A stretch of 64,000 nucleotides of DNA, from assembly GCA_000146465.1 (NCBI GenBank), contig CP001950.1; one strand, written 5' to 3'. How positions within the stretch are numbered: position 1 is the first letter of the stretch; the number at the start of each line of letters is the position of its first letter. Positions 5,927 through 60,154 of the stretch are shown here, one piece after another. The notes under the pieces were generated by a model. That model had not been told where the DNA came from. It saw only the letters and a program-made list of their open reading frames with translations, and searched no databases. A program made the position numbers and the translations under genes.

Positions 5927-6889
5927 ATGAAGCTGAGACCAAGAAGAATAAAGAAGAGATGTTTAGTTTTACTGATTATTTTGTTTAATCTCCTACTGGT
6001 TCTTCTTGTGAAGCATAAAAACAAAATGAACATAGGAAACAAGGTGGATCTTGGTCGTTTGAAATGGTTTGGAACTGGTACAATAGTGGTGTCGGCGATG
6101 GAAATGTTCCAAGACGTGGGGTTTTCCGATGCCATCTCGAAATCTGAGTTGATTTCCACAGACGTTCAAGGACAAGGAGACGTTGTGGATTCCATACTGA
6201 GCCGTGTAAACGTCGAGGTTAGGGAGATTCTACTCATAGATACAAGGAGACTTAGAGGCATGAACCGTACTGTTTTCCCAAGGTTTGAGAAAGAGAGGGC
6301 AAACTACAGTCTTGGAATAGACTATATTGAAGAATTGGCCAAGGAATTTATCAGGAGAATAGACAATGGAAGAGTTAAGTACCCATTTGGTAGTAACACA
6401 GCAAGAGAATATGTAATGAGGATAAAGTCGTTTACCAAGAGGCATACCAAGGGAGAAGACGATAGCGAGATTATAAAGCTAGTAAACAAGGTGTTTCCAA
6501 CCATTGAGATATCATTCTACACATACATAATGATGGTTCTACTCAACATTCGAGAGATGATTGTTGAAGATTTTGATTCAATTAAGGAAATATTGAAGAC
6601 AAGAAAGATATATAGCATCAGTAACGACAAGATAAATCAGCTTGGAGGAATGATCATGAGAGCCCGGGCTTTCAACGACGGAATACCCGAGTGGAATTTA
6701 TGCAATGCATGCGATCAAGTCTTTTTTGAAGAAGATCGCGCCGATTTACAAAAGCTTACGTGTGATGATGTTATATGTAGGAGATGTTTAAAGCAATCCT
6801 TCCTGTATTCTGATGATGAGTTCTGCATAAAGTGCGGGACTGAATACGACATTTTACCTGGAAATCGCTTTAAAGATTTACTTGATTAG
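5927..6889 (+). CDS. Hypothetical type-II/signal-anchored membrane protein with a C-terminal RING-like cysteine cluster.
   Basis: N-terminus 'MKLRPRRIKKRCLVLLIILFNLLLVLLV' (signal anchor). C-terminus 'CNACDQVF...(16)...CDDVICRRCL...CIKCG'. The TAG stop at 6887-6889 directly abuts the next gene's ATG. Confidence 0.45.
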   Translation: MKLRPRRIKKRCLVLLIILFNLLLVLLVKHKNKMNIGNKVDLGRLKWFGTGTIVVSAMEMFQDVGFSDAISKSELISTDVQGQGDVVDSILSRVNVEVREILLIDTRRLRGMNRTVFPRFEKERANYSLGIDYIEELAKEFIRRIDNGRVKYPFGSNTAREYVMRIKSFTKRHTKGEDDSEIIKLVNKVFPTIEISFYTYIMMVLLNIREMIVEDFDSIKEILKTRKIYSISNDKINQLGGMIMRARAFNDGIPEWNLCNACDQVFFEEDRADLQKLTCDDVICRRCLKQSFLYSDDEFCIKCGTEYDILPGNRFKDLLD

Positions 6890-39162: not shown

Positions 39163-40353
39163 CTAGTTTTCCTCCTTCCTTCCAATTTTAATTTCAGGAA
39201 GAACAAGTAAAGGACCTCCAACTCCTCTTCTTTTCAATTCCCAATATTCCAATACTTTCAAAAGATCTGGGAAGTTTCCTTCCTTTTGGGTATATGCTTT
39301 AATCTTTGAAAGAATGGATGGTGTGGCAACCGGCTGTAGATTGCAGAGCTTTCTGAATAGCGTAACCTGAGGGCATGCCATTGGAGCCTTTTTTCGGATT
39401 ATTGGAGGATTTCGTAACTTTTCATATCCAAAATACCTTATTTTGGTCACTTTTCTGTAGCCTAATTCATATGGACTTCTTTTCAAAGGACTATGGTCGA
39501 TACAATAAGATATTCTATTTTCCAAATCAAAGTAACATTTGTCTAGAGCACATGACACATGGTATTTCCTAGAACACATAAAATACGAGCAGCATATCAC
39601 AGTTCCAACAGTTTTTTCACAGAAAGAACATCCGGATTCTTTGGTATAGGAGCTAACATCAATGGGGTCTTTTGATAATGGATGGCCAAACGAGAGAGAT
39701 CTGTTGAACATAGCACACAAAACATGGCCCCATCTGTTGTCGGATGTCTGCTTGAAGATGCCGTCTGAAGAAGGGCAGAAAGAACACTCTTTTAGGTCCT
39801 TTCCATATATACATCCCTTGCACAACCAAAAATCACTCAGATCTTGTATTCCATAGCAGTTTTCATGCACACATATTCCACATCCTTGGCATACAAAAAG
39901 AGTTCCGGTGCGTTCCGATGCATGCCTTGTACAGATATCACAGAAGGAAGTGGGTTCTATAGGTTTTACGTGCCTGGATACTAAATCCTGCACGAATAGG
40001 AACCATTCCTTTTCTAATCTGTCGATAACTAACTCAAAAACATCTTTGGAGATATCAATTCCCGATCTCTCCAAATAAAGTTGATCATAGCTGTCTAGTT
40101 TATACACGATAGACTCAAAGAAGTTTCCTTTTTGATTCCTTCTAGTTGTTTTCTTGCTATCCGATTCACTTTCTGATGCATAGGTGCTTTTTGAAATAAT
40201 CTGATGCATTTTCTCGATCTCCAGATTATGATATATCGATCTGTAATCACGTTCCTCCCTCGGAACGCCTCCAAGGCATTTGGAAGTAGACATTTTTGGG
40301 TAGTAAGATTCCCCATAAGGAATGGAAAATTTTTTTTCTCGGCACATAACCAT
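39163..40353 (-). CDS. PHD-zinc knuckle-PHD (PZP) finger protein of the BRPF/JADE/Nto1 HAT-scaffold family.
   Basis: PHD1 'CDICTRHASERTGTLFVCQGCGICVHENCYG'. Zn knuckle 'WLCKGC...CSFCPSSDGIFKQTSDNRWGHVLCAMF'. Extended PHD 'CSFCEKTVGTVICCSYFMCSRKYHVSCA'. The track start 40374 is GTG. The first ATG is at 40353. Confidence 0.6.
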   Translation of the reverse strand: MVMCREKKFSIPYGESYYPKMSTSKCLGGVPREERDYRSIYHNLEIEKMHQIISKSTYASESESDSKKTTRRNQKGNFFESIVYKLDSYDQLYLERSGIDISKDVFELVIDRLEKEWFLFVQDLVSRHVKPIEPTSFCDICTRHASERTGTLFVCQGCGICVHENCYGIQDLSDFWLCKGCIYGKDLKECSFCPSSDGIFKQTSDNRWGHVLCAMFNRSLSFGHPLSKDPIDVSSYTKESGCSFCEKTVGTVICCSYFMCSRKYHVSCALDKCYFDLENRISYCIDHSPLKRSPYELGYRKVTKIRYFGYEKLRNPPIIRKKAPMACPQVTLFRKLCNLQPVATPSILSKIKAYTQKEGNFPDLLKVLEYWELKRRGVGGPLLVLPEIKIGRKEEN

Positions 40354-43300
40354 AGCCGAGACAGGAGGAGACACTTGGATTTACAGTAAAGGATACACGG
40401 CTAGAAAAAATATCATCTACAATGAGTCTGGCGAAAGTATATATGAGATTCCATTTGTCCCAAAACACTTCCATGTTTTAGCATTTGAATACTTCTTAGT
40501 CGATGAACTAAACGCTATATATCTGGTTAACAAAAATACATTGGAAATATTGGAGATTGGAAGAGTGAAAGATGAAGTGGTTGCTCTCAGTGTATCAAGA
40601 GATGAAAAATGGTGTGTTATTGCCTCTACTACGGAGATTCTTCTCTTTGATTCATATATTGACTTCAAGAAGTCGATCAAATTCGAATTTAATGAAGTAA
40701 TTCAGATTGAATGGACGGACTACGAGGTTTTTGGTGTACTAACTAGTAACATGATATTCTTTTATGATATCGAACTTAATTTGGTAGGAAAAAGCAAAGA
40801 AAGGGAATATTCAAGTATTTCTTGGAGAAGCAAATATAACGTATTTGGATGCTCAACGGGCAAGGAAATCTGCTTCGTTGAACCAAATGGACTTGAACAT
40901 GGAGATCCATTAGAGGTACGATGTAACAAATTGACTTTTCTTGAAAATGAAGATTTGCTGGCTACTATTGAAAATAATGACGAAGGTTCTCTGCTCAAAG
41001 TGTTTTACACAAAGAATTTTCATTGGTATTTGAAACTTTTGAAGCAAGTACCTGGAGGATTCCTATGTAGTGAAAAAAATGCCGTGCTGTTCAAAGATAA
41101 AGAGAGGATAGCAAAGGTTTTTTTGTTTGAGGAGAAGACGCATAGCGGCCCAGAATATTACGTGATTGATGGAAATTGCATACTTTACACAGACTTTTCG
41201 AAGAAAATCGTTCCACCACCTTTCTTCTCTGTAAAAATTGAGTTTGATAGTAATGTTATAGATATCTTTCCATCAGCAAAGAAGGGAGCAGTTCTCCTGA
41301 GAGACAAAGTGATTATTTTCAAATGGAACGGAGATAATTTTATTAGCGAAGAAGCTTTTTTTTTGGGAAGGGAATTTGACTCTGTCGTTCAGTTTAAAAG
41401 TTTTCTCCTTCTAAAGAGTAAAGATGAATTTCTTATAAAGAAAATGAATGGCGGTGAGGAAATACGTATCAACAGAAGTGTAAGAATTCAAGAAGCAACA
41501 AGAAGAAACATTATGAATGAAGAAAACATTAATGTCGTTACTAGCCAGCTCTGTGAAATATTGAACAGTTCGGTTGATGTTGTTAGATGTTACAACTTTG
41601 AAGAAAAGCTCTACTTACTGTTAGAAGATGGTTCTGTTATTCATAATGGTAGAATAGTGCATTCAGGAATTGACCTAGAGAAAAGATTTGAAATAGTCAT
41701 AGGAGAAGATATCTTTGTTCATAATGGAACGAAGCTTTTTAAAAATGGTAACGTTACAGAGAATATAACTTCATTTCTGATTGGAGAGCATGGAATAATT
41801 ACTGTATCTGAAGGAACAGGTAGATTTTTCTTAGGCCTTAAAGAAAGCACTTGCCAGGTTGATCATAGGTTGGAGCTTCTGTGTGCTCTGGACTTTAGGG
41901 TTGTTGGATTGACTAGGCATGGAACACTCGAGACATACACGCCTAAGATTTACACGCTAACTTTTATAAGGAAGCTTTTACTTGATGGGAAGTATAAAGA
42001 TGCCATAGAAGGATGCCAAAGATATATAATTCCTTTTGGAGTATTTTTGGATTATAACATTGAACTTTGCAAGTTCATAGAAGCATGCAAAGATACTCAT
42101 CTTATATCCTTCTTCAACGAAGCCCTACAGACGTTTGGAGATTTCGATTTTATTCTTGAAAGTGAAAAGGTAAAAAGATTCAGAAGGGTTTTTAATTTTC
42201 CTATGGTCTTGGAGCCTGGAAAGGGAAAAGAATATTTTGAAGTGTTAATAGCTAACGACGAATCAATAAGTGATGGCTCTCTTGAACATCTAATGGAATA
42301 TAGAAATGGAAAGAGCCAAGAAGACTCAAAATTGGGTAACTCCAGATACTCAAGAGACCTTCCTAGAGACGGGAAGAAACTATGTGGGAGAAACACAAAA
42401 GATTTCTTTAACGAGCTTTTCCAGTCATTGGATCTGGAAAGAAATTTCAAGTTTGCCATTTTCGCACTAGTGAAAGTAAAAAGAATGGATCTCGCGCTCC
42501 AAGTAGCTAAGCATGATATGAAGGGGGGAATTGGATATATGCTTTCTATAACTAATATGAGTAACATTATCAATTCTGCATTGGAAACTTGTGAAGAAGA
42601 TTTGGTGCATGAGGTGATGAAAATTTGCCAGAAGGACTCATCTGACTTTCTTTTTCTGATACGTAACTGTGAGAAAGACCTACGAGGGTTTAAGATTAAT
42701 GACTTCCTTAAGAACAGAATAGATGCACTTTATCACATAAGCAGAACCGGAATGGTGGATTTGGAAAGAGAATATATCCAGAAGCACGATCTTGTTGAAG
42801 AGGCATTGATGTATGAGGCTTGTGGTTTGAGTATTAGAAAGGAAGGATATTATTTCAACCTATGTGCAGAGCTTCTTCCGCCAGAAAAGGCATTGATTCT
42901 TTTCAAGAGAGCCCAAAACATAGAAAAGGCATTAGAAACAGCTATAGAAAATCTCTATTGGAGAGAAGCATTAGGCATGTGTGTCAAAGAAAGACAAGAA
43001 GAACTCGGTAAGTCACTGGCTAGTAGGCTTATTGATTCAGGGAAGAATTATGAAGCAGGACAGTTATTTGAGGAGTTCTTGGGAGATACAGAAAAGGCCT
43101 TCATTGAATATGTAAAGGCAAAAAGTATGGGAAATGCTCTTAGACTGTGTTCTGATGGAGAACTTCTCATGAAGGAAGCACGTGAAATTCTCAAGGAAAA
43201 GCTTCTGGTACTTGATGATATAAAGAAATCGTTTATAAAATACAGAGACAGACTGAAAACTCTTGAGGAAAGAGAAGATGATTGTATGAGTGAGACATCG

Positions 43301-43627
43301 TTTAGTTACACCGAAAACAGAAGAGGTAGTAAGAGTACAAAAGTAAAGAATAGGCCAGGAGGAGGATATGAAAAAGAGTTTGTACTCGGAAAGATTAGAG
43401 ATATTGGCTTGAATTTGATGAGGTGGAGGGATGAAACCGAGGATCTTTTGAAGGTATTTGAGAAATTTGAGATGAAAGAGTGCATCGATGCACATAATAC
43501 CTCATTTAGCGCAGTAGGTGAAGTTTTAAAGATGGAAATAGACAATGTATTCGGAACAGAAAAAAGACATCTTTATGAATCAAATAGGCCGATTGTTGAG
43601 AAGCCAGATCTCAGCAAATGGCTTTAA
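40322..43627 (+). CDS. Large WD40/TPR-type protein, tentatively Elongator subunit Elp1/Iki3.
   Basis: 1101-aa ORF. N-terminal beta-propeller-like repeats. C-terminal helical region with 'YEAGQLFEEFLGDTEKAFIEYVKAKSMGNALRLC', reminiscent of the Elp1 C-terminal TPR/dimerisation region. Tentative. Confidence 0.45.
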   Translation: MENFFSRHITIAETGGDTWIYSKGYTARKNIIYNESGESIYEIPFVPKHFHVLAFEYFLVDELNAIYLVNKNTLEILEIGRVKDEVVALSVSRDEKWCVIASTTEILLFDSYIDFKKSIKFEFNEVIQIEWTDYEVFGVLTSNMIFFYDIELNLVGKSKEREYSSISWRSKYNVFGCSTGKEICFVEPNGLEHGDPLEVRCNKLTFLENEDLLATIENNDEGSLLKVFYTKNFHWYLKLLKQVPGGFLCSEKNAVLFKDKERIAKVFLFEEKTHSGPEYYVIDGNCILYTDFSKKIVPPPFFSVKIEFDSNVIDIFPSAKKGAVLLRDKVIIFKWNGDNFISEEAFFLGREFDSVVQFKSFLLLKSKDEFLIKKMNGGEEIRINRSVRIQEATRRNIMNEENINVVTSQLCEILNSSVDVVRCYNFEEKLYLLLEDGSVIHNGRIVHSGIDLEKRFEIVIGEDIFVHNGTKLFKNGNVTENITSFLIGEHGIITVSEGTGRFFLGLKESTCQVDHRLELLCALDFRVVGLTRHGTLETYTPKIYTLTFIRKLLLDGKYKDAIEGCQRYIIPFGVFLDYNIELCKFIEACKDTHLISFFNEALQTFGDFDFILESEKVKRFRRVFNFPMVLEPGKGKEYFEVLIANDESISDGSLEHLMEYRNGKSQEDSKLGNSRYSRDLPRDGKKLCGRNTKDFFNELFQSLDLERNFKFAIFALVKVKRMDLALQVAKHDMKGGIGYMLSITNMSNIINSALETCEEDLVHEVMKICQKDSSDFLFLIRNCEKDLRGFKINDFLKNRIDALYHISRTGMVDLEREYIQKHDLVEEALMYEACGLSIRKEGYYFNLCAELLPPEKALILFKRAQNIEKALETAIENLYWREALGMCVKERQEELGKSLASRLIDSGKNYEAGQLFEEFLGDTEKAFIEYVKAKSMGNALRLCSDGELLMKEAREILKEKLLVLDDIKKSFIKYRDRLKTLEEREDDCMSETSFSYTENRRGSKSTKVKNRPGGGYEKEFVLGKIRDIGLNLMRWRDETEDLLKVFEKFEMKECIDAHNTSFSAVGEVLKMEIDNVFGTEKRHLYESNRPIVEKPDLSKWL

Positions 43628-43663: not shown

Positions 43664-44482
43664 TTAATTCAATAAATATTTATTCTCTAGCTGGTGCTTC
43701 AGGAGTATCAGAAAGAGGTGTACAATGGTTAATTCGGGCCACAGTACTTTTGCAAAAAATACAGATGTTCCCGTTGCAACTTGGCGTACCATGAAATTAC
43801 TCAGTCTCTTTGCGTCTCCTGTTCTTATAAGTATATCGACTTTACTGTCGAATTTTATTCCTCTATTGATTTCATCTTCCGAGGAATACGCAAAGAAAAT
43901 ATTCACAACTATATCTGTATTGTTCTCAGTTTCCTTTTCTACTTCTATAAGCTTGTTTCTGACATCCGAATCAAGGAGATCCAATCTTCCATAAACTAAA
44001 AACTTTGGCTTGATACTTGTCTTTTTAGGATTTTTTATCTTCTTTCGGATAATATTCATTATCCCGTTCACTTCTTCAGGAGTTCTTCTAAGGTTGCTTA
44101 AGGCGAAACAGAAAAAAGAAACTTCCTTAAGACCATAAAAGTACCCGAAATTAATGAATTCGTATATTTTCTGGAGGCCTGGATCTCTTGTAAACTTGTC
44201 TTTCTGCCCAATCTTCTTCATATATCTTCTATTTCCATCGCAGATGAATGCAACCCTCATGCCTTGGAATATCTTAATCCTGCTTCTTCGAAAGGCGCCA
44301 TCCGAATGATTGGAGTATGGTATTCCATTCCACACATCCAAGCCCATCGATGTCAAGGAAGAGGCCTTTCGAAAAATCCCTACTATGAAAAGAATCAACT
44401 CCATAATATACTTATTATTAACTCCATTTTCAACCGCTTCCACCACACATACCAGAACCTTCCTTGCTAGATTTTCCAGCAT
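43664..44482 (-). CDS. RER2: cis-Prenyltransferase / dehydrodolichyl diphosphate synthase (UPPS family).
   Basis: 'MRVAFICDGNRRYMKK' (HxxxDGNRR motif), 'SFFCFALSNLRRTPEEV' and 'IRTGDAKRLSNFMVRQVATGTSVFFAKVLWPELT'. ATG verified. Confidence 0.85.
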   Translation of the reverse strand: MLENLARKVLVCVVEAVENGVNNKYIMELILFIVGIFRKASSLTSMGLDVWNGIPYSNHSDGAFRRSRIKIFQGMRVAFICDGNRRYMKKIGQKDKFTRDPGLQKIYEFINFGYFYGLKEVSFFCFALSNLRRTPEEVNGIMNIIRKKIKNPKKTSIKPKFLVYGRLDLLDSDVRNKLIEVEKETENNTDIVVNIFFAYSSEDEINRGIKFDSKVDILIRTGDAKRLSNFMVRQVATGTSVFFAKVLWPELTIVHLFLILLKHQLENKYLLN

Positions 44483-44587
44483 TCAACAATCAATGGATTC
44501 CATAAAAACTTTTTAATAGCTTAAGCTTAGAATCCTAATAATTAATTATTAAAACACAGAAATGCTGTAAATCGTTTTCATTCACCT

Positions 44588-45826
44588 CTAAATAAAGTCT
44601 ATGGTGTTTCTGTCAAGTCTCTCTGTCTCCAACTCTAATCTATTTCGGAGAGCGCTCTCCTTATTCCTTTCATTCAATAATTCATTGTTCCTGATTTTCA
44701 GAATATTATACATCCTCTCTAACTCTTCTATATTCTTTTTGATTTCTTGAGTCCTCGTCTCGTCTAGCTGGAGTTCTCTGTTGCCTATATCATACTCCTC
44801 ATCATATTTCTTGATTCTGTCCGAGAATATTTTCTCTTCATCCTCTAGAAGCGCCAGCTTAGACCTCTGGTCATCCATCATCTTCGAAAGTTTTAAAAGC
44901 TCATTTCTAGATAGTCTTATAAGGGCCAATGTCCTTCCTCTTTGGATCTCAACTTCCTTTATGTTAGTTTGTAAGTTTCTTAGATGGTTCTTCTTTGTAT
45001 GAATCCTCGACATCATATTATCCTTCATTTTCTGCGTATCCTGTATCTTCTCAGTAAGCTGGTCTATGTCCTGAAGAAGCTTGTCAATGCTATTTTGCAG
45101 CATGTTTTCTTTTTGCTTGCTCTGTGCCATCTTTAGAACAATAAATGACTTCTTTGCTCCCAGTTCGTCTGATTGATTAGTGTTTTCGCCCATTCCAAAC
45201 CCCATCCCATCTCCCAAGGGAGATCTAGTATATCTAGGGACCTCCATGAAGGAATCCCCACTCTCTCTAAACGACAATGGTATGTATTTGCTCTGCTCAG
45301 GCCTATATCCCGACAAAATATCTTTTGGGAGATAACCCTGTGTTCCAGACCCACTTCCATTAAACATCTGTTGATTACCTCGGTTAAATAGGCTTCTAAT
45401 GTGCAATGGGTTGAGTAATGAACTTTCTTGGTAACTCATTCCCAACTCTGGGGTCGTATCTTCATCCATCGAGCTTGGTGTTGACCTTCCCATGTACTCA
45501 GGCTTGGAGGAGTTCAATTGTAGGCGATTTTCCTCGTCGTCTTTCTTACTTAAGCTATCCTTTCCCTTTCCAAATAGTTTATCTTCGCCTCGGTTTCCTT
45601 CATCATATTTAGAAGGTATGTTCTCATTGTCTCCAACAACTCTTTTTATCCCCTTGGTGTTAGAAAGCAGCACACCATCTCTGCTGTTTTTTATAGTTCC
45701 TCCAAGAGCATTTATCACTTTTCTGGCCATGTCTGGGTCTTTGTTCGGTCTGTCAGTGACTCCAAGATCGTCTACAACAACTATTTTGGATAGACATACC
45801 TGAATCAAAACTATTATTGCTATCAT
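44588..45826 (-). CDS. Hypothetical protein with an N-terminal signal peptide, a low-complexity S/G/N-rich middle and a C-terminal coiled coil (candidate secreted/structural protein).
   Basis: N-terminus 'MIAIIVLIQVCLSKIVVV'. No other TM segment. C-terminal 150 aa is heptad-rich (LQDIDQLTEKIQDTQKMKDNMM...). Confidence 0.5.
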   Translation of the reverse strand: MIAIIVLIQVCLSKIVVVDDLGVTDRPNKDPDMARKVINALGGTIKNSRDGVLLSNTKGIKRVVGDNENIPSKYDEGNRGEDKLFGKGKDSLSKKDDEENRLQLNSSKPEYMGRSTPSSMDEDTTPELGMSYQESSLLNPLHIRSLFNRGNQQMFNGSGSGTQGYLPKDILSGYRPEQSKYIPLSFRESGDSFMEVPRYTRSPLGDGMGFGMGENTNQSDELGAKKSFIVLKMAQSKQKENMLQNSIDKLLQDIDQLTEKIQDTQKMKDNMMSRIHTKKNHLRNLQTNIKEVEIQRGRTLALIRLSRNELLKLSKMMDDQRSKLALLEDEEKIFSDRIKKYDEEYDIGNRELQLDETRTQEIKKNIEELERMYNILKIRNNELLNERNKESALRNRLELETERLDRNTIDFI

Positions 45827-45966
45827 CTTTGTTTATTCCCTGTAGCGTCTTGTTGTTTTTAATTGCTGTGTTTCACACCAAGATCCAAGTTTCCAGGACT
45901 CGGATGGGTAAAAGAGTCTAGACTTATGTGCGTGAGTAAATGGAGATGTACTGAAAAGCCCTCAAA

Positions 45967-48606
45967 ATGAGAAAGACAGACCTAGAAGATATTCGAAGAG
46001 TTTATGAAAAGTATGGGGAGGTTCTTGACGTAGATAAAATAAAGAACGGAGCAAAACATATTTTCAAATATGTTATGGATATTCCTGGATCTTTGCTTGA
46101 CTATCCAAAAGTAAGGCATCTTCGTTTCTTGGCAAAAGAAAAGATCAGCCAGATTGTAAGCGAGATAAGAAGTCAGCATAATGAAGGAGACATAGATTCA
46201 AAAAGAACATTGGAGTGGATTTCAGCCATTAAAAATATTAGAAAGGTCCACTCTGCAATTGTAGGATATGAGTCTGCTCGTATAGCATACTGGAGAAAGA
46301 TCAGCGTGATATGTGCTAGAGAATTGAAAAGAGGGCTTTCCAAGACATCCAGAACCAATCCTATACTTAAGTCAAAGAAAATATACAAAGAACTATTTGG
46401 ACACATAAAGAAAACCGAAAGAAGCATGAAGGACAAGTCGAAGAGAGCAGAGAAGGAGGAAATGGAAAGGAAGAAGAAGGAGATGGAAGAAAAAGAGGAA
46501 CTTCGGCAGAAAAGAAAGTTTGAGTATCTCCTGAGCCAGACAGAACTTTTTTCTCATTTCATATTGAAGAAGAGTAAATGCGATGTTTCAAATACAGAAG
46601 GAGAAGGGACTGAAGAATATAATAGCATGAAGGGATACAAGGCAGCCATGCTTCAAAAGGAAAAGGTAAAAGAGTTTGAAATGGGCAAGCAAGGAAAGAA
46701 ATTCAAGAGCGGAGAAGAAGTTGGAGAAGTAGCATCTCGATATGTATCTCAGCCAAGTATCTTAAAGTGTGTTCTGAAGGAGTATCAATTGAAAGGATTA
46801 AACTGGCTTGTTAGTCTGTACGATAAAGGAATCAATGGAATCCTTGCAGATGATATGGGCCTTGGAAAAACAGTCCAATCGATTTCGCTGTTAGCTTATC
46901 TTTATGAGACAGAGGAGATCCCGGGGCCATTCCTTGTTGTAACCATTTCTTCAACACTCGACAACTGGGCTCAGGAATTTTCAAGATTCCTTCCTAGCTT
47001 TAAGGTATGCCGTTTTTCAGGATCTCCAAGTGAAAGAAAGGAGCTGAAGAAGCAATTCAAGAATTCGGACGTTGTTATTACTACATACCAAACAGCAGTT
47101 AGCGATGAGAAGATGTTGAAAAAGATCAAATGGCAGTATATGATTCTTGACGAAGCACAAGCCATCAAAAGTAGTATGTCGAGGAGGTGGAAAACTCTTC
47201 TGAGTTTCAAGGCAAGGAATAGGCTTCTTTTGACAGGAACACCGATACAAAACTCTATGCAAGAGTTATGGGCTCTTCTCCATTTTATAATGCCTACTTT
47301 GTTTGACTCTCTTAGTGAGTTCAGTGACTGGTTTAGCAAGGAGATAGAAACTTCGGCAACTATGAAAAAGACTGTTGATGAAAAGTCTTTACAAAGACTT
47401 CATACTATTCTAAAGCCATTTATGCTCCGAAGACACAAATCCGATGTTATTCATGAACTAGGGCAAAAGACGCAAATTGATCTATATTGCAACCTGAGCT
47501 ATAGGCAAAGAGTACTATATAAGGAAATAACTAAATCTTGCTCAAGTATGGAGATGGAGAATCTGCTTATGCAATTGAAGAAGGTTTGCAACCATCCAGA
47601 TCTGTTCAAGAAATTGGAGCCGACTTGTGGATTGAGCCTTGAAATTAGTGATGGAGTAGGCGATACTATTTCGTTTGGTAGAAGTAAGCTAGACATAAAA
47701 ATTCCCAGTCTTATCGCAAAGGATGCACTTGAGGTGTTCCATAGAAGGGAACAGGAATTAATTGAAAGAATCAATGCACTGGAGAAGATTGCTTATGGAA
47801 GGGGATTCTGGGGATGGTATTTAGAGAACAGCTTAGACTTCAAATATAAGGGCCGTATTTTTAGAAGTGTTAAAGAGGTTGGTAAATCTATATTGAGGAA
47901 TTTCGAGAATTTAGATTCCAACAAGTTATTAGAGAGCCTGAAAAGATTAATGAATGAGGAAATGTACTGCTTAAAAAGATATGCTTGCTGCATAAGTCCG
48001 GTTGTTGCTACAGTACCTAGGTTGATTTCTAATGAAGTGGAGCTCCCGGGTATATATTTGGAAGATGTGCACATTCCACTTAACACAACCATCCACGTCC
48101 CTCCACTCAATACTTTCATTAGCGACAGCGGAAAAATGATAATTTTGGATGAATTATTACCGAGACTTAAAGCTGAGGGCCATAGATTATTGATATACTT
48201 CCAAATGACACGGATGATAGACCTTATAGAAGATTATCTTGTGAAGAAGGGATACACATACCTGAGACTGGATGGGAGTCTGAAAGCTTCGGCCCGGGCG
48301 GACGTGATCCGAGATTGGCAAACAAATGACAAATTTATTTTTCTATTAAGTACCCGTGCTGGAGGACTAGGTATTAATTTAACTGCTGCAGATACAGTTA
48401 TTTTCTACGACAGCGATTGGAATCCCACTGCTGATCAACAAGCAATGGATAGAGCACATAGACTGGGGCAAACAAGAGATGTAACGGTGTATAGGCTTAT
48501 TACAAGGGGAACGGTTGAGGAAAAGGTTCTAGAAAGTGCCAACAGAAAAGACGAGATACAGAAAATGGTTATTCATGGAAACATATTTGAAGGAGAGAAC
48601 TTTTGA
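45967..48606 (+). CDS. INO80: INO80-type Snf2-family chromatin remodelling ATPase (HSA region plus a split ATPase with a long insertion).
   Basis: HSA/post-HSA 'KRAEKEEMERKKKEMEEKEELRQKRKFEYLLSQTELFSHFILKK' (Ino80 signature 'FLLTQTELFSHF'). 'LKEYQLKGLNWLVSLYDKGINGILADDMGLGKTVQ', 'DEAQAIKSS', 'LLTGTPIQNS'. An insertion of about 270 aa precedes the C-lobe 'GKMIILDELLPRLKAEGHRLLIYFQMTRM...DWNP..DQQAMDRAHRLGQTRDVTVYRLI'. Confidence 0.85.
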   Translation: MRKTDLEDIRRVYEKYGEVLDVDKIKNGAKHIFKYVMDIPGSLLDYPKVRHLRFLAKEKISQIVSEIRSQHNEGDIDSKRTLEWISAIKNIRKVHSAIVGYESARIAYWRKISVICARELKRGLSKTSRTNPILKSKKIYKELFGHIKKTERSMKDKSKRAEKEEMERKKKEMEEKEELRQKRKFEYLLSQTELFSHFILKKSKCDVSNTEGEGTEEYNSMKGYKAAMLQKEKVKEFEMGKQGKKFKSGEEVGEVASRYVSQPSILKCVLKEYQLKGLNWLVSLYDKGINGILADDMGLGKTVQSISLLAYLYETEEIPGPFLVVTISSTLDNWAQEFSRFLPSFKVCRFSGSPSERKELKKQFKNSDVVITTYQTAVSDEKMLKKIKWQYMILDEAQAIKSSMSRRWKTLLSFKARNRLLLTGTPIQNSMQELWALLHFIMPTLFDSLSEFSDWFSKEIETSATMKKTVDEKSLQRLHTILKPFMLRRHKSDVIHELGQKTQIDLYCNLSYRQRVLYKEITKSCSSMEMENLLMQLKKVCNHPDLFKKLEPTCGLSLEISDGVGDTISFGRSKLDIKIPSLIAKDALEVFHRREQELIERINALEKIAYGRGFWGWYLENSLDFKYKGRIFRSVKEVGKSILRNFENLDSNKLLESLKRLMNEEMYCLKRYACCISPVVATVPRLISNEVELPGIYLEDVHIPLNTTIHVPPLNTFISDSGKMIILDELLPRLKAEGHRLLIYFQMTRMIDLIEDYLVKKGYTYLRLDGSLKASARADVIRDWQTNDKFIFLLSTRAGGLGINLTAADTVIFYDSDWNPTADQQAMDRAHRLGQTRDVTVYRLITRGTVEEKVLESANRKDEIQKMVIHGNIFEGENF

Positions 48607-56719: not shown

Positions 56720-59700
56720 CTATCTTATTGATTTCAGAATAGACAGTAAGCTTTCTGATGGCAAGTATCTGGGGCATATGAAAGCGTGAGAAGAGACCCC
56801 CGTGTACGAGGGAAGAGTTACAGTTGGATCAGAGATAAATTTGTCATTCCTGTTGTCATTTCCAAAAAAGTATGAAGCCTCTGCATCGAGTTTAGATACA
56901 ATTTCATTTATCTGGAGACAATTCAAAATAGAGCATTCGTCCAAAATCAGGTCTGCCGTCGCTCGAGACTCAACAAGATTGATAAGCCTTATTATAGCTG
57001 TAGTATGAGATAGGTTAAACATCCCCTCCAGATAGTTTATGCTCCTGCAGAACTTATCTATTTCGTTTATGTTGTAGTTTATCTGGACGCCTCTATTGAA
57101 AGACAGGAAATTCTTTTTAACAAGGATCTCGTTGAAAACAGAAATATTGATGGTCTTCAAAAGATAATTGATGGACTCCATGATATATGGGTCTGGAATG
57201 TAATAGTAGGACATCTGGTGGTAGAAATATTCCAAGAGATGTATGAGTTTGGAGATGTGAGGAGGTTTGAATAGTTTTTTGAAATATCCCTCGCTACACT
57301 TGAATTTGGACAGCTGCTGGTGTTCTAGGACAGCATGTGGCAGGACTTCAAGAAGAAAGCTTCTTTGAAGCTCGCAAAGATGTTTGAACAGAATGGATAT
57401 AAGGCTCTTAACTTCTTCCACATTGTTAACACCGTATCCACGAAGTATGTTTTCATATTCAATGAGATTTGATAGTATAAAAGAAACCTTATGTATGTTT
57501 CTTTCAAACATATGTAGTTGAAGATTGATCTCATTCATCATACAAGCAGTACTTTCCACTATATTCTTCCCAAGCTTGTTTACGGCATAGAATGCAGAAT
57601 GAGCAAGCCCTAGAATTTCAGGTTTTGGCACTTCCTCATTAGAAAATGTAGGGACAAATTCCAGATAAAGCTGTACCAAGCAATTGAACACATTGTAGGC
57701 ATTGGTAAATGATACACTCATGTGGGAGTCGTCATCCTCCTCTTTTTCGGAAAGGCGTTTTTCCAGGTCCTCAACCTTTGCCTTGTATTTCTCAAGTTCC
57801 AGTTCAATCATATTTTTTTTCTTTAAAGCTTCACTTTGAAATCTATACTTCAGTTCAAGAGATTTACAATTCCTACAAGGAGCTTCGCAGAACTTTTTAT
57901 ACTTTTCTATCTTTAACTCCAAATCCCGTATGATTTCTTTGTAGCTTCTCTGTTTTCTATTATCTTCCTGTGCATTGCAGGGATCTGTAGTATTATATCC
58001 TTTATCTATCATAAGCTCTACAGAATTGCTTTCAATCGAAACAGAGCTTTCTGCGACCACAGGCTCATTTACAAACATGATTCTTTGCTTTTTATCACAG
58101 TTATGGTTATTCAAATAGCTCCTCAATGCATTCTTTATATTTCTAAAACATTCTTCATAAAATAGAGATCTACGAATCTCTAAAATCCTTAGGCTCTCAT
58201 TACTCATGAAGTATCTGCTCTTCCCTTTTTTCACCGTCACCATTTCAAATGTGGTGGATCCAAGGACTTCGTAACGGGTTTCAAACTCGTTCTTTTGTAT
58301 CTCCTGAGGGAAACATTGCTTACTTATTCTTATTGTTTCTAGGACACCACACTCGGCAAGTTGCTTTGCTATCAATGGCCTGTCAAATAGCTTTGGTTTC
58401 TTCTGTGCATTCGGCCTTATACATTTAATATACTTTGTCTGTGTTTCGTTTATAGAATGAAGCAGATTGTTCATGGAATCTTTAAAGTACTTAACCAAAT
58501 CTTCCTTATTTTCTTCATGAATAATAAGGGGATTTTCGAAAATTTTCAGGTTTCCTCTTTCTCTGTTCTTGTCTAGAAAAGATCTTAAGTCGTATTCTAC
58601 ATCTCCAGCATAGTGAGACACAACTATCTTGTCGTCGGCCTTGGTTCTAATATTTCCTTTTAGATAATTTTTTATCTTCATACTTAGGTTCTGAACATTT
58701 CCCCAGGCATTAAAACTCTCCTCACTTATTAAATCCATAAGTCCACAAGGCTTCTCAAAGTCTAGGATACATTGATTGTTGTCAAAGAACTCAACATCTC
58801 TCCATTCAATTCCCTCTTTCTTGTACATTTCTTGTTTTCCTCGGAAAACCTTCCTAATAAAATCATTCTGTATCTTTTCGTTCGTCCAGTTTATGCAAAG
58901 CTGATCAAGCCCGTTCTTTTCAAAAATCTCAAATCCGAATATATCTAGGACAGATATAAAAAGCTCTCCATTCCCGCTCAGGCAGTTATTTATAGACGAT
59001 GTAATATAATTGAATATATTGGAATACAACAACCGAGCCATCGAGTTTCTTATTGTAACTGCTTGTTTCAAAGTGTTGAAGACTTCAATGGTTTCTCCCT
59101 TAACTTGAATAGAAAACTTGACAAGAGATTCTTCAAATGCATCCTCTTGAATATCATGAAGCTTACAGAATTCTTTAAAACATTCGTTCCTCACAACCTT
59201 CAAAATCCCATCTCCTCCAAATTGAATGGATCCTAAATATAAAATTCCTAAAAGACAATCTTCAATCTTGTTTATGCAAGCCACCCCCACACTTTCCATT
59301 GCCGAACGTGTTGCCGCGTATTCTTTTGACAAACGCATAGAATATTCCTTATTTCCTACAAGACTTGAAGTGTCAATAAAGTCGTTCTTAAGATTTAAAC
59401 CTTTAGATGCACAGAATTGGTAGAATATATGAAAGTTTTTTTCTCCAATTTCATGGTGCGTTACTCTACTTTTTTCGAGGAGATATGTTTCAAATTTGGC
59501 TCCTGTTATTTTTCCATTGAACATTACCTTAATTCTCTTTCCAAACCTCGAACTATTGTCATTAAGAATTGTCTGGGCATTTCCAAATGCCTCTAAAATA
59601 GCATTTGCTGCTGCTATGTTCCTTTCGATCGAGGCACTACTTGCAGTTCTCTCTATCAAGTACTTTATAATCAGCTTTGCGTTTTCGGTTTTTCCCGAAC

Positions 59701-59980
59701 CTGATTCCCCACTAATCACAATAGTTTGGTTTCCATGGATAAACAAATCCTGATATGCAGACTCTGCCACTCCATAAATATGTGGATAGCTATAAGCATA
59801 ATCAGCAGGCGACTGCATGATTTCTTTTATAGAAGGATTGAGGTTTTCGTACGGATTAAGAGCTAGAAATACCAGCCCTGATCTTGTATAGATCTTCCCA
59901 GATGCATATCTCTTCTCAAGTATGTCGGAAATAACATTTCCATCCAGATCTCCTAGTTCGCATAGGTCGTCGTTTTCCAT
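56720..59980 (-). CDS. Class V myosin heavy chain (motor + short coiled coil + DIL cargo-binding domain).
   Basis: P-loop 'GESGSGKTENAKLIIKYL'. Switch II 'LDIFGFE'. 'LEKRYASGKIYTRSGLVFLALNPY'. C-terminal dilute domain 'SFNRGVQINYNINEIDKFCR' compared with Myo2 'SWSNGVQIRSNVSRLEEWCK'. The track ORF extends to an upstream ATG at 60136, adding 52 hydrophobic residues. The conserved start MENDD... is at 59980. Confidence 0.8.
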   Translation of the reverse strand: MENDDLCELGDLDGNVISDILEKRYASGKIYTRSGLVFLALNPYENLNPSIKEIMQSPADYAYSYPHIYGVAESAYQDLFIHGNQTIVISGESGSGKTENAKLIIKYLIERTASSASIERNIAAANAILEAFGNAQTILNDNSSRFGKRIKVMFNGKITGAKFETYLLEKSRVTHHEIGEKNFHIFYQFCASKGLNLKNDFIDTSSLVGNKEYSMRLSKEYAATRSAMESVGVACINKIEDCLLGILYLGSIQFGGDGILKVVRNECFKEFCKLHDIQEDAFEESLVKFSIQVKGETIEVFNTLKQAVTIRNSMARLLYSNIFNYITSSINNCLSGNGELFISVLDIFGFEIFEKNGLDQLCINWTNEKIQNDFIRKVFRGKQEMYKKEGIEWRDVEFFDNNQCILDFEKPCGLMDLISEESFNAWGNVQNLSMKIKNYLKGNIRTKADDKIVVSHYAGDVEYDLRSFLDKNRERGNLKIFENPLIIHEENKEDLVKYFKDSMNNLLHSINETQTKYIKCIRPNAQKKPKLFDRPLIAKQLAECGVLETIRISKQCFPQEIQKNEFETRYEVLGSTTFEMVTVKKGKSRYFMSNESLRILEIRRSLFYEECFRNIKNALRSYLNNHNCDKKQRIMFVNEPVVAESSVSIESNSVELMIDKGYNTTDPCNAQEDNRKQRSYKEIIRDLELKIEKYKKFCEAPCRNCKSLELKYRFQSEALKKKNMIELELEKYKAKVEDLEKRLSEKEEDDDSHMSVSFTNAYNVFNCLVQLYLEFVPTFSNEEVPKPEILGLAHSAFYAVNKLGKNIVESTACMMNEINLQLHMFERNIHKVSFILSNLIEYENILRGYGVNNVEEVKSLISILFKHLCELQRSFLLEVLPHAVLEHQQLSKFKCSEGYFKKLFKPPHISKLIHLLEYFYHQMSYYYIPDPYIMESINYLLKTINISVFNEILVKKNFLSFNRGVQINYNINEIDKFCRSINYLEGMFNLSHTTAIIRLINLVESRATADLILDECSILNCLQINEIVSKLDAEASYFFGNDNRNDKFISDPTVTLPSYTGVSSHAFICPRYLPSESLLSILKSIR

Positions 59981-60154
59981 CTTAGGACATAAGGACCTCT
60001 TCTTTTGTTTTCTAAAGGACCAATAACCTCTAAAAGCGCTGATTGAAAGAGATTTAAACAGTTCCAGAACCAATGAAATAAAATCTAACGGTGAACCATT
60101 TAATAGAACTGATAGCAGCAACGCCAAACAAATCATCTGATGCTCTATTTGTCT

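Follow-up and report, generated by a model that had tools for sequence, protein, structure and literature searches.

The stretch of DNA analysed here (the window; 64,000 nucleotides of contig CP001950.1, assembly GCA_000146465.1) derives from the microsporidian Encephalitozoon intestinalis ATCC 50506, and the gene of interest is the open reading frame (ORF) at positions 44588–45826, which matches the annotated uncharacterised protein Eint_091930 with 100 % identity and coverage. It lies on the minus strand, a detail absent from a preliminary description made from the sequence alone, and its start codon is the first ATG downstream of an in-frame stop. On the basis of sequence comparison, Eint_091930 belongs to a protein family without a name, which has to date been encountered in Microsporidia alone and is single-copy where checked and conserved in position. 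The predicted architecture shared by its members incorporates a hydrophobic N-terminus, a motif of four aliphatic residues followed by two aspartates (DD), a variable disordered linker and a helical rod of fixed length (Table 1).

Table 1 Coordinates of Eint_091930, its predicted parts and its neighbours in the window
Feature	Coordinates	Strand	Basis
Eint_091930, complete coding sequence (412 codons, with stop at 44588–44590)	44588–45826	-	ORF list; identity to annotated protein
Signal-peptide-like segment MIAIIVLIQVCLS, residues 1–13 (putatively cleaved)	45788–45826	-	Hydrophobicity; family pattern; SignalP 4 call on ortholog
Motif KIVVVDDLGV, residues 14–23	45758–45787	-	Alignment of 32 sequences
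N-terminal head, residues 14–63	45638–45787	-	AlphaFold2 prediction
Acidic, S/G-enriched disordered linker, residues 64–219	45170–45637	-	Model confidence; identity; length range; composition
Coiled-coil rod and short, conserved hydrophobic tail, residues 220–412	44591–45169	-	AlphaFold2; heptad signal; register; anchor spacing
140-bp intergenic region between Eint_091930 and the INO80-type gene, presumed promoter and 5' leader	45827–45966	.	Presumed function
cis-Prenyltransferase (RER2-type), downstream neighbour	43664–44482	-	Pfam Prenyltransf, E 2e-37
INO80-type SNF2 ATPase, upstream divergent neighbour	45967–48606	+	Pfam DBINO and SNF2-rel_dom
ELP1	40322–43627	+	Neighbourhood of Eint_091930

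Distribution and synteny of the family

Close orthologs of Eint_091930 are encoded by E. cuniculi (ECU09_1880; Q8STL0), E. hellem (EHEL_091930), E. romaleae (EROM_091920) and Ordospora colligata (M896_110340), and several further matches, without names, come from public read assemblies. Using a profile built from the close orthologs against 1.84 billion representative proteins, twenty-seven matches were obtained at E ≤ 1e-3, with eighteen of these at E ≤ 1e-10. The named matches, all annotated as 'hypothetical', include those in Vairimorpha ceranae (NCER_100482), Edhazardia aedis (EDEG_00371), Hamiltosporidium species, Astathelohania contejeani (TCON_2576) and Conglomerata obtusa. The absence of a recognisable homolog reported in the preliminary description is in one respect not upheld, as orthologs, all of them unnamed, are distributed across microsporidian genera; conservation in related genomes, which it had proposed to check, extends to each of the genera listed here besides Encephalitozoon, and the relatives that were checked occupy the same locus. 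When the family alignment and a Nosema-clade alignment were each used for further homolog searches, low-complexity candidates predominated, and the unnamed protein P0075 was the sole addition. Every family sequence that was read shows the same architecture as Eint_091930. The metagenomic member P0020 carries the name 'DNA repair exonuclease SbcCD ATPase subunit'. As it incorporates the signal segment, motif, linker and rod and has no ATPase head, this name is evidently a misannotation driven by the coiled coil.

The genomic context is shared between distant relatives. The V. ceranae ortholog is flanked by a divergent INO80-type gene on one side and a Prenyltransf gene downstream, exactly as in E. 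intestinalis, while in E. aedis the next gene after EDEG_00371 (EDEG_00372) codes for a RER2 cis-prenyltransferase. Similarly, INO80 is situated approximately 2 kb from the family gene in a metagenomic microsporidian relative. The order of INO80, family gene and cis-prenyltransferase, which is kept in part in E. aedis and the metagenomic relative, was traced over positions 43664–48606 of the window, 2275–8152 of L001 and 70–6379 of L003. This shared locus indicates that relatives with only ~20–23 % identity in the rod are true orthologs, and the block is a useful synteny marker when highly diverged orthologs are sought. The family evolves faster than its neighbour genes, with identities between E. 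intestinalis and V. ceranae of 48 % for INO80, 42 % for RER2 and 23 % (rod only) for the Eint_091930 family protein. In view of the adjacency to a cis-prenyltransferase, the partner of this enzyme, Nus1/NgBR, was considered as an identity for Eint_091930 and rejected, as the C-terminus is a single helix lacking the RXG end.

Predicted architecture of Eint_091930

The hydrophobicity of Eint_091930 peaks at residues 2–12 (IAIIVLIQVCL; Kyte-Doolittle 3.16 over 11 residues), and a scan of the whole protein revealed no other transmembrane-like segment beyond the N-terminus, as had been described. The signal peptide noted in the preliminary description can be retained for residues 1–13, while the eighteen residues quoted for it ran into the start of KIVVVDDLGV, a conserved motif that would follow the cleavage site. 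Among the thirty-two family members aligned, the segment preceding this motif varies in sequence and is constant in hydrophobic character. It is 11–20 residues long in thirty members, most having 11–13 residues, and the two members with longer segments look like over-extended gene calls. Basic residues occur in the segment of 13/32 members, near its start where present, and acidic residues in that of only four, three of which have the longest segments (19–49 residues; probably over-extended calls). Cleavage of Eint_091930 before K14 would leave C at position -3 and S at position -1. Across the family, position -1 is occupied by S, A, C or T (25/32 members), position -3 by C, I, S, V, L or T (31/32) and the residue after the putative site by K, Q, R, E or D, polar or charged with either sign (31/32). 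An uninterrupted hydrophobic span of membrane length (~18 or more residues) is not found, since K14 breaks the run in Eint_091930 and one of K, R, E, D or Q does so in 31/32 members.

Residues 1–13 are well supported as a short, putatively cleavable signal peptide, with K14-IVVV-DD as the probable mature end. Cleavage is favoured by the family-wide -3/-1 pattern, by a charged or polar residue of either sign, which would be tolerated at the mature +1 position and not within a membrane-spanning helix, and by the conserved motif, which begins exactly at K14 and forms a strand of the head in the AlphaFold2 model. SignalP 4 was designed and trained to distinguish signal peptides from membrane anchors. 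Its call on the E. aedis ortholog EDEG_00371 ('Secreted? Y'; Desjardins 2015) likewise favours cleavage and, together with the signal features present throughout the thirty-two members, agrees with the entry into the secretory pathway that had been proposed. The signal peptides of E. intestinalis score poorly with standard tools (PMC11972355), and a low score for Eint_091930 would thus not be decisive. As a cleavable signal, residues 1–13 would direct the protein into the endoplasmic reticulum (ER) with its C-terminus in the lumen; with positive charges ahead of the hydrophobic core and the acidic DD after it, the C-terminus would come to lie in the lumen whether the segment is cleaved or anchored.

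The motif that directly follows the signal segment has the form (K/Q/R/E/D)-four aliphatic residues-DD-(L/I/V)-(G/N)-(L/V/I/M) across the family, with D19 and D20 representing the sole invariant columns of the entire alignment. AlphaFold2 predicts a small head comprising a beta strand (residues 15–18), a helix (31–47) and two further strands (52–56 and 59–63), with a predicted local distance difference test (pLDDT) score of 80–86. Comparison of the four aliphatic residues and DD with the strand ends of Walker B, receiver-domain, HAD and vWA proteins was dismissed, given a folded head of only ~50 residues and an apparent mismatch in motif spacing. Five members (P0023, P0028, P0031, P0036 and P0037) are rich in R, A and G, which suggests GC-rich source genomes. 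In this subgroup Q precedes the motif (...SAQ|K, ...SLQ|K) and the helix-strand pattern of the head is less obvious; one of the five, P0028, was found repeatedly on many metagenome contigs.

The head is followed by a region with pLDDT values below 50 (residues 63–218), which is acidic (pI 4.7) and moderately rich in S, G and N (13 %, 12 % and 7 %, respectively, over residues 61–222), so that the S/G/N-rich disordered middle of the preliminary description is confirmed. This linker is less conserved than the rod, with 13–54 % versus 55–91 % identity among close relatives, and 52–54 % versus 87–91 % among the four Encephalitozoon species. The portion upstream of the rod spans 193–522 residues across the family, a variation of more than 300 residues. 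A single XBBXBX heparin-binding-type pattern (TKKNHL) is present at residue 277 of Eint_091930. The idea of a heparin-binding motif was rejected, with one pattern observed versus 1.06 expected in shuffled sequence.

Residues 220–411 are predicted by AlphaFold2 to form one continuous helix of ~190 residues, with pLDDT mostly above 90; the rod contains no Pro and three Gly residues, and would be ~28 nm long if straight. Its heptad score is 0.44, compared to 0.27 ± 0.04 in 200 shuffles (maximum 0.38), which places it ~4 standard deviations above these. The heptad periodicity over this Pro-free helix is thus beyond chance. The heptad coiled coil reported previously thus stands, scoring above all of the shuffles, while its length of 150 residues falls short of that of the predicted helix. 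Hydrophobicity profiles show a register that is constant family-wide from ~219 to ~383, with the a position at residues where position mod 7 = 2. In the E. intestinalis rod, a positions are Ile-rich and d positions Leu-rich, as would suit a two-stranded coil. The final four heptads retain Leu or Phe every seven residues at one core position, and polar residues occupy the second (R387, R394, T401 and T408), suggesting that the end of the rod may be loosely packed. A reading of the rod as an unbroken series of twenty-seven heptads is ruled out by this degenerate core in the family-wide profile.

Two further properties of the rod concern its surface and its length. All seven heptad positions are similarly conserved among the twelve closest relatives (0.78–0.90), so that the surface equals the core, and the anchor columns K232 and E400 are exactly 168 residues apart in 32/32 members, with zero indels and identical sub-spacings of 52, 25, 4, 77 and 10. 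The tail that follows the E400 anchor comprises 9–17 residues with a hydrophobic end, which in Eint_091930 is IDFI. The conserved surface and strictly fixed length point to constraint along the whole rod, as would arise from side-by-side packing with itself or from a partner at fixed spacing.

The claim that no other protein in the window combines an N-terminal signal peptide with a lack of further transmembrane segments is roughly right, with the ORF at 5927–6889 (plus strand; 320 residues) having been overlooked. It begins with MKLRPRRIKKRCLVLLIILFNLLLVLLVKHK, a basic stretch followed by ~16 hydrophobic residues that resembles a type II signal anchor, with no transmembrane-like segment further on, and Pfam gave no match at E ≤ 0.001; it may be considered a further candidate for the secretory pathway. 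The ORF at 56720–60136 (minus strand; 1138 residues) also has a signal-peptide-like start (MICLALLLSVLLNGS), and codes for a class V myosin (Myosin_head, E 8e-141, and a DIL domain), which makes the hydrophobic start part of the N-terminal region or of an over-extended gene call and not a secretion signal. Furthermore, the divergent ORFs at 39163–40353 (minus strand) and 40322–43627 (plus strand; ELP1-like) overlap by 32 bases at their 5' ends (40322–40353), and one of the two first ATGs is thus probably not the true start.

Comparison with known proteins and expression of the Edhazardia aedis ortholog

No Pfam family was assigned to Eint_091930, and the thirty-two members yielded only scattered sub-threshold coiled-coil matches, none of which recurs. 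Those of Eint_091930 itself are to Snapin/Pallidin (E 0.006) and TACC_C (E 0.017). An identity as Snapin/Pallidin (PF14712) was rejected, with 17.4 bits against a curated cut-off of 29.6 and a match in 1/32 members. A sequence-profile search of the PDB gave generic coiled-coil matches only (best E 0.004), so that homology to an intracellular coiled-coil protein, a check called for in the preliminary description, did not reach threshold for any such family in either search. Foldseek comparison of the full model against the PDB returned nothing at E ≤ 0.001, the top match being vimentin (E 3.4) without statistical weight. A 2024 study that re-annotated E. cuniculi proteins by structure gives 'N/A' for the ortholog Q8STL0, and the family protein is absent from the supplements of Han 2017, Heinz 2012 and Campbell 2013.

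Several features are shared with the polar tube proteins (PTP) and spore wall proteins (SWP) of Microsporidia, including the restriction of the family to this group, the short signal peptide-like segment at the N-terminus and the lack of domains known elsewhere, as well as the highest expression of a distant ortholog, that of E. aedis, in a spore-forming sample. Eint_091930 has no cysteines after the signal segment, and the mature protein would in this respect resemble PTP3, which lacks cysteine; PTP1 and PTP2 are disulfide-linked. As far as checked, the combination of the motif and a fixed-length rod does not occur in the described PTP and SWP families. By locus tag, Eint_091930 matches none of the E. 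intestinalis loci named in PMC11972355, which include PTP1 (Eint_060150), PTP2 (Eint_060140), PTP3 (Eint_111330), PTP4 (Eint_071050), the PTP6 ortholog (Eint_081680), EnP1 (Eint_010720), EnP2 (Eint_011200), SWP1 (Eint_101630) and the tube-associated Eint_070340. The twenty-seven profile matches include no named PTP or SWP, as judged by the names of the matches. PTP7 of A. algerae was rejected as a relative, being Thr-rich with six Cys residues and found in only two genera.

Proteins of similar design are found among the animal luminal coiled-coil spacers and Golgi proteins CLIMP-63/CKAP4 and GOLM1/GOLIM4, which retain an uncleaved anchor. These likewise consist of an N-terminal targeting segment followed by a long luminal coiled coil, and the fixed rod length of the Eint_091930 family would suit a spacing role of the CLIMP-63 type. 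The resemblance is one of design only, since the Pfam and PDB profile searches found no sequence or profile similarity to CLIMP-63, GOLM1 or GOLIM4, and we know of no microsporidian relatives of these proteins. Unlike in these anchored proteins, cleavage is the better supported option in Eint_091930. With intermediate-filament rods such as that of vimentin, the family shares a long heptad rod, a length kept over deep divergence and a surface as conserved as the core. However, Eint_091930 lacks the intermediate-filament consensus motif and its rod is not divided into linker-interrupted subdomains, while intermediate-filament proteins are cytoplasmic or nuclear and without signal peptides.

The expression of the E. 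aedis ortholog EDEG_00371 was compared with that of the chitin synthase EDEG_01376 using published values for six samples (Table 2). Expression of both genes is highest in sample 5 and falls to its minimum in free spores, and the spore versus intracellular log fold change of EDEG_00371 is -4.2 (q = 0.0065; Desjardins 2015). This pattern fits production during spore formation. The predicted secreted proteins of E. intestinalis are concentrated in late spore-forming clusters (PMC11972355).

Table 2 Expression of EDEG_00371 and chitin synthase EDEG_01376 in E. aedis, in fragments per kilobase per million (FPKM; two replicates; Desjardins 2015, Supplementary Data 3)
Sample	EDEG_00371	EDEG_01376
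1	12.6 / 8.3	44.2 / 19.3
2	18.3 / 15.0	9.0 / 7.9
3	18.4 / 23.5	130.3 / 75.4
4	18.1 / 15.1	95.9 / 60.8
5 (fourth-instar larvae, spore masses in fat body)	77.5 / 30.1	456.3 / 135.1
6 (environmental spores)	1.1 / 1.4	2.3 / 2.0

Possible roles in the secretory pathway and spore formation

The reading that we tentatively prefer is that Eint_091930 serves as a scaffold or spacer of the secretory pathway, composed of a rod and a tether, in the intracellular, spore-forming stages. It is more weakly suggested that the rod associates with further copies of itself, or with a partner, in a coiled coil of fixed length, and that the conserved head of 50 residues, held at the end of the flexible acidic linker, binds something else. 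The protein would act inside structures that are derived from the secretory pathway and built during spore formation, with the polar tube precursors, polaroplast, anchoring disc and spore wall as candidates, and not as a soluble host effector. The conserved heptad surface and the lack of indels could reflect lateral packing, or contact with a partner along the whole rod at a fixed spacing. A bolder proposal, which we consider unlikely, is that the family forms a near-universal core part of the microsporidian invasion or spore apparatus, in which the secreted, fixed-length rod would function as a molecular ruler or lattice element setting, for example, the spacing of polar tube, polaroplast or wall layers, and the strand of four aliphatic residues and DD at the new N-terminus would function as a docking or assembly motif.

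A number of observations weigh against the scaffold or spacer role. The core of the last four heptads of the rod is degenerate, and the g-e' pairs expected in an in-register parallel homodimer comprise two attractive and five repulsive pairs of twenty-six, so that a homodimer of this type is not supported by charge pairing. No named Nematocida, Trachipleistophora or Enterocytozoon genome is represented among the profile matches, and a pan-microsporidian distribution is thus not proven. The expression of EDEG_00371 is modest (tens of FPKM) and on in all intracellular samples, for which a housekeeping factor of the secretory pathway is as good an explanation as a bulk structural protein, or a better one. 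Furthermore, no mention of the locus tags or accessions of five orthologs was found in literature text, and no experiment or proteomic record was found for Eint_091930 or any ortholog.

The closest rivals to the scaffold or spacer role are a luminal resident and a type II membrane protein. As a luminal resident of the ER or a Golgi-like network, which appears doubtful, Eint_091930 would act constitutively in the sorting, tethering or assembly of exported cargo and would not be built into the spore. The low and fairly even expression of EDEG_00371 in four intracellular samples (8–23 FPKM) and its near absence in free spores are consistent with such a factor, as is the behaviour of the trafficking genes GDI1 and GEA1, which is alike in the same E. 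aedis table. The absence of cysteines after the signal, unlike in the disulfide-linked PTP1 and PTP2, and the deep conservation of a single-copy gene also point in this direction. However, EDEG_00371 increases four- to five-fold in the spore-forming sample, the C-terminus (IDFI) is not H/KDEL and provides no ER-retention signal, and no eukaryote-wide luminal coiled-coil family was matched.

CLIMP-63 spaces the sheets of the animal ER as a membrane-anchored luminal rod, and a comparable type II arrangement of Eint_091930, with an uncleaved anchor that includes KIVVV and the rod as a luminal membrane spacer in polaroplast or ER stacks, is distinctly unlikely. Such an arrangement would suit the fixed rod length, and the edge of the membrane could lie at the invariant DD; the very short signal candidate (mostly 11–13 residues) and the four aliphatic residues would together make up a hydrophobic run of 15–18 residues. 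This run is, however, broken by K, R, E, D or Q in 31/32 members, some of which carry two or three such residues ('RSK'), while residues 15–18 are placed in a strand of the head domain by AlphaFold2. The residue at -1 obeys the small-residue rule of signal peptidase in 25/32 members, and the E. aedis ortholog was called secreted by SignalP 4 (Desjardins 2015).

A role as host-exposed effector or adhesin had been put forward for a lineage-specific protein in the preliminary description and is very improbable. Such a protein would be released into the parasitophorous vacuole or the host cell, or exposed on the spore or tube surface, and would bind molecules of the host. The signal-peptide-like N-terminus, the disordered region and the lack of known domains are compatible with it, as would be the XBBXBX pattern, had this not been equally frequent in shuffles. 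Host-exposed proteins of Microsporidia typically belong to fast-evolving, expanded and species-specific families, a point also made for E. aedis (Desjardins 2015). The Eint_091930 family, by contrast, has single-copy orthologs in syntenic position across distant genera, an invariant DD, a rod of fixed length free of indels and 87–91 % rod identity among four Encephalitozoon species; neither lineage specificity nor host exposure is thus supported. A cytosolic or nuclear coiled-coil protein of cytoskeletal, spindle-plaque or BLOC-1-like type, with a hydrophobic N-terminus that does not act in targeting, is very improbable as well, the sub-threshold Snapin/Pallidin and TACC_C matches being set against the cut-off shortfall and lack of recurrence described above, the signal-peptide features kept across the family and the positive SignalP 4 call on the E. 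aedis ortholog. Long coiled coils are, in general, mostly intracellular in eukaryotes, which would have favoured it.

The Eint_091930 family is well defined and uncharacterised, and such orphan genes are common in the E. intestinalis genome. The microsporidian spore wall and the harpoon-like polar tube are built from secreted proteins. To our knowledge only a handful of wall and tube proteins have names, and for most of these conservation between genera is poor. A secretory protein that is recognisable, syntenic and constrained in length across distant genera would represent a useful cross-species marker or antibody target, while the invariant motif situated directly after the signal peptide provides a concrete feature for mutation. 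Should Eint_091930 simply reside in the reduced secretory pathway, it would fill one 'hypothetical' gap in these minimal genomes. As a scaffold or spacer, the family is a candidate for one of the factors that arrange the polar tube or membrane stacks during assembly.

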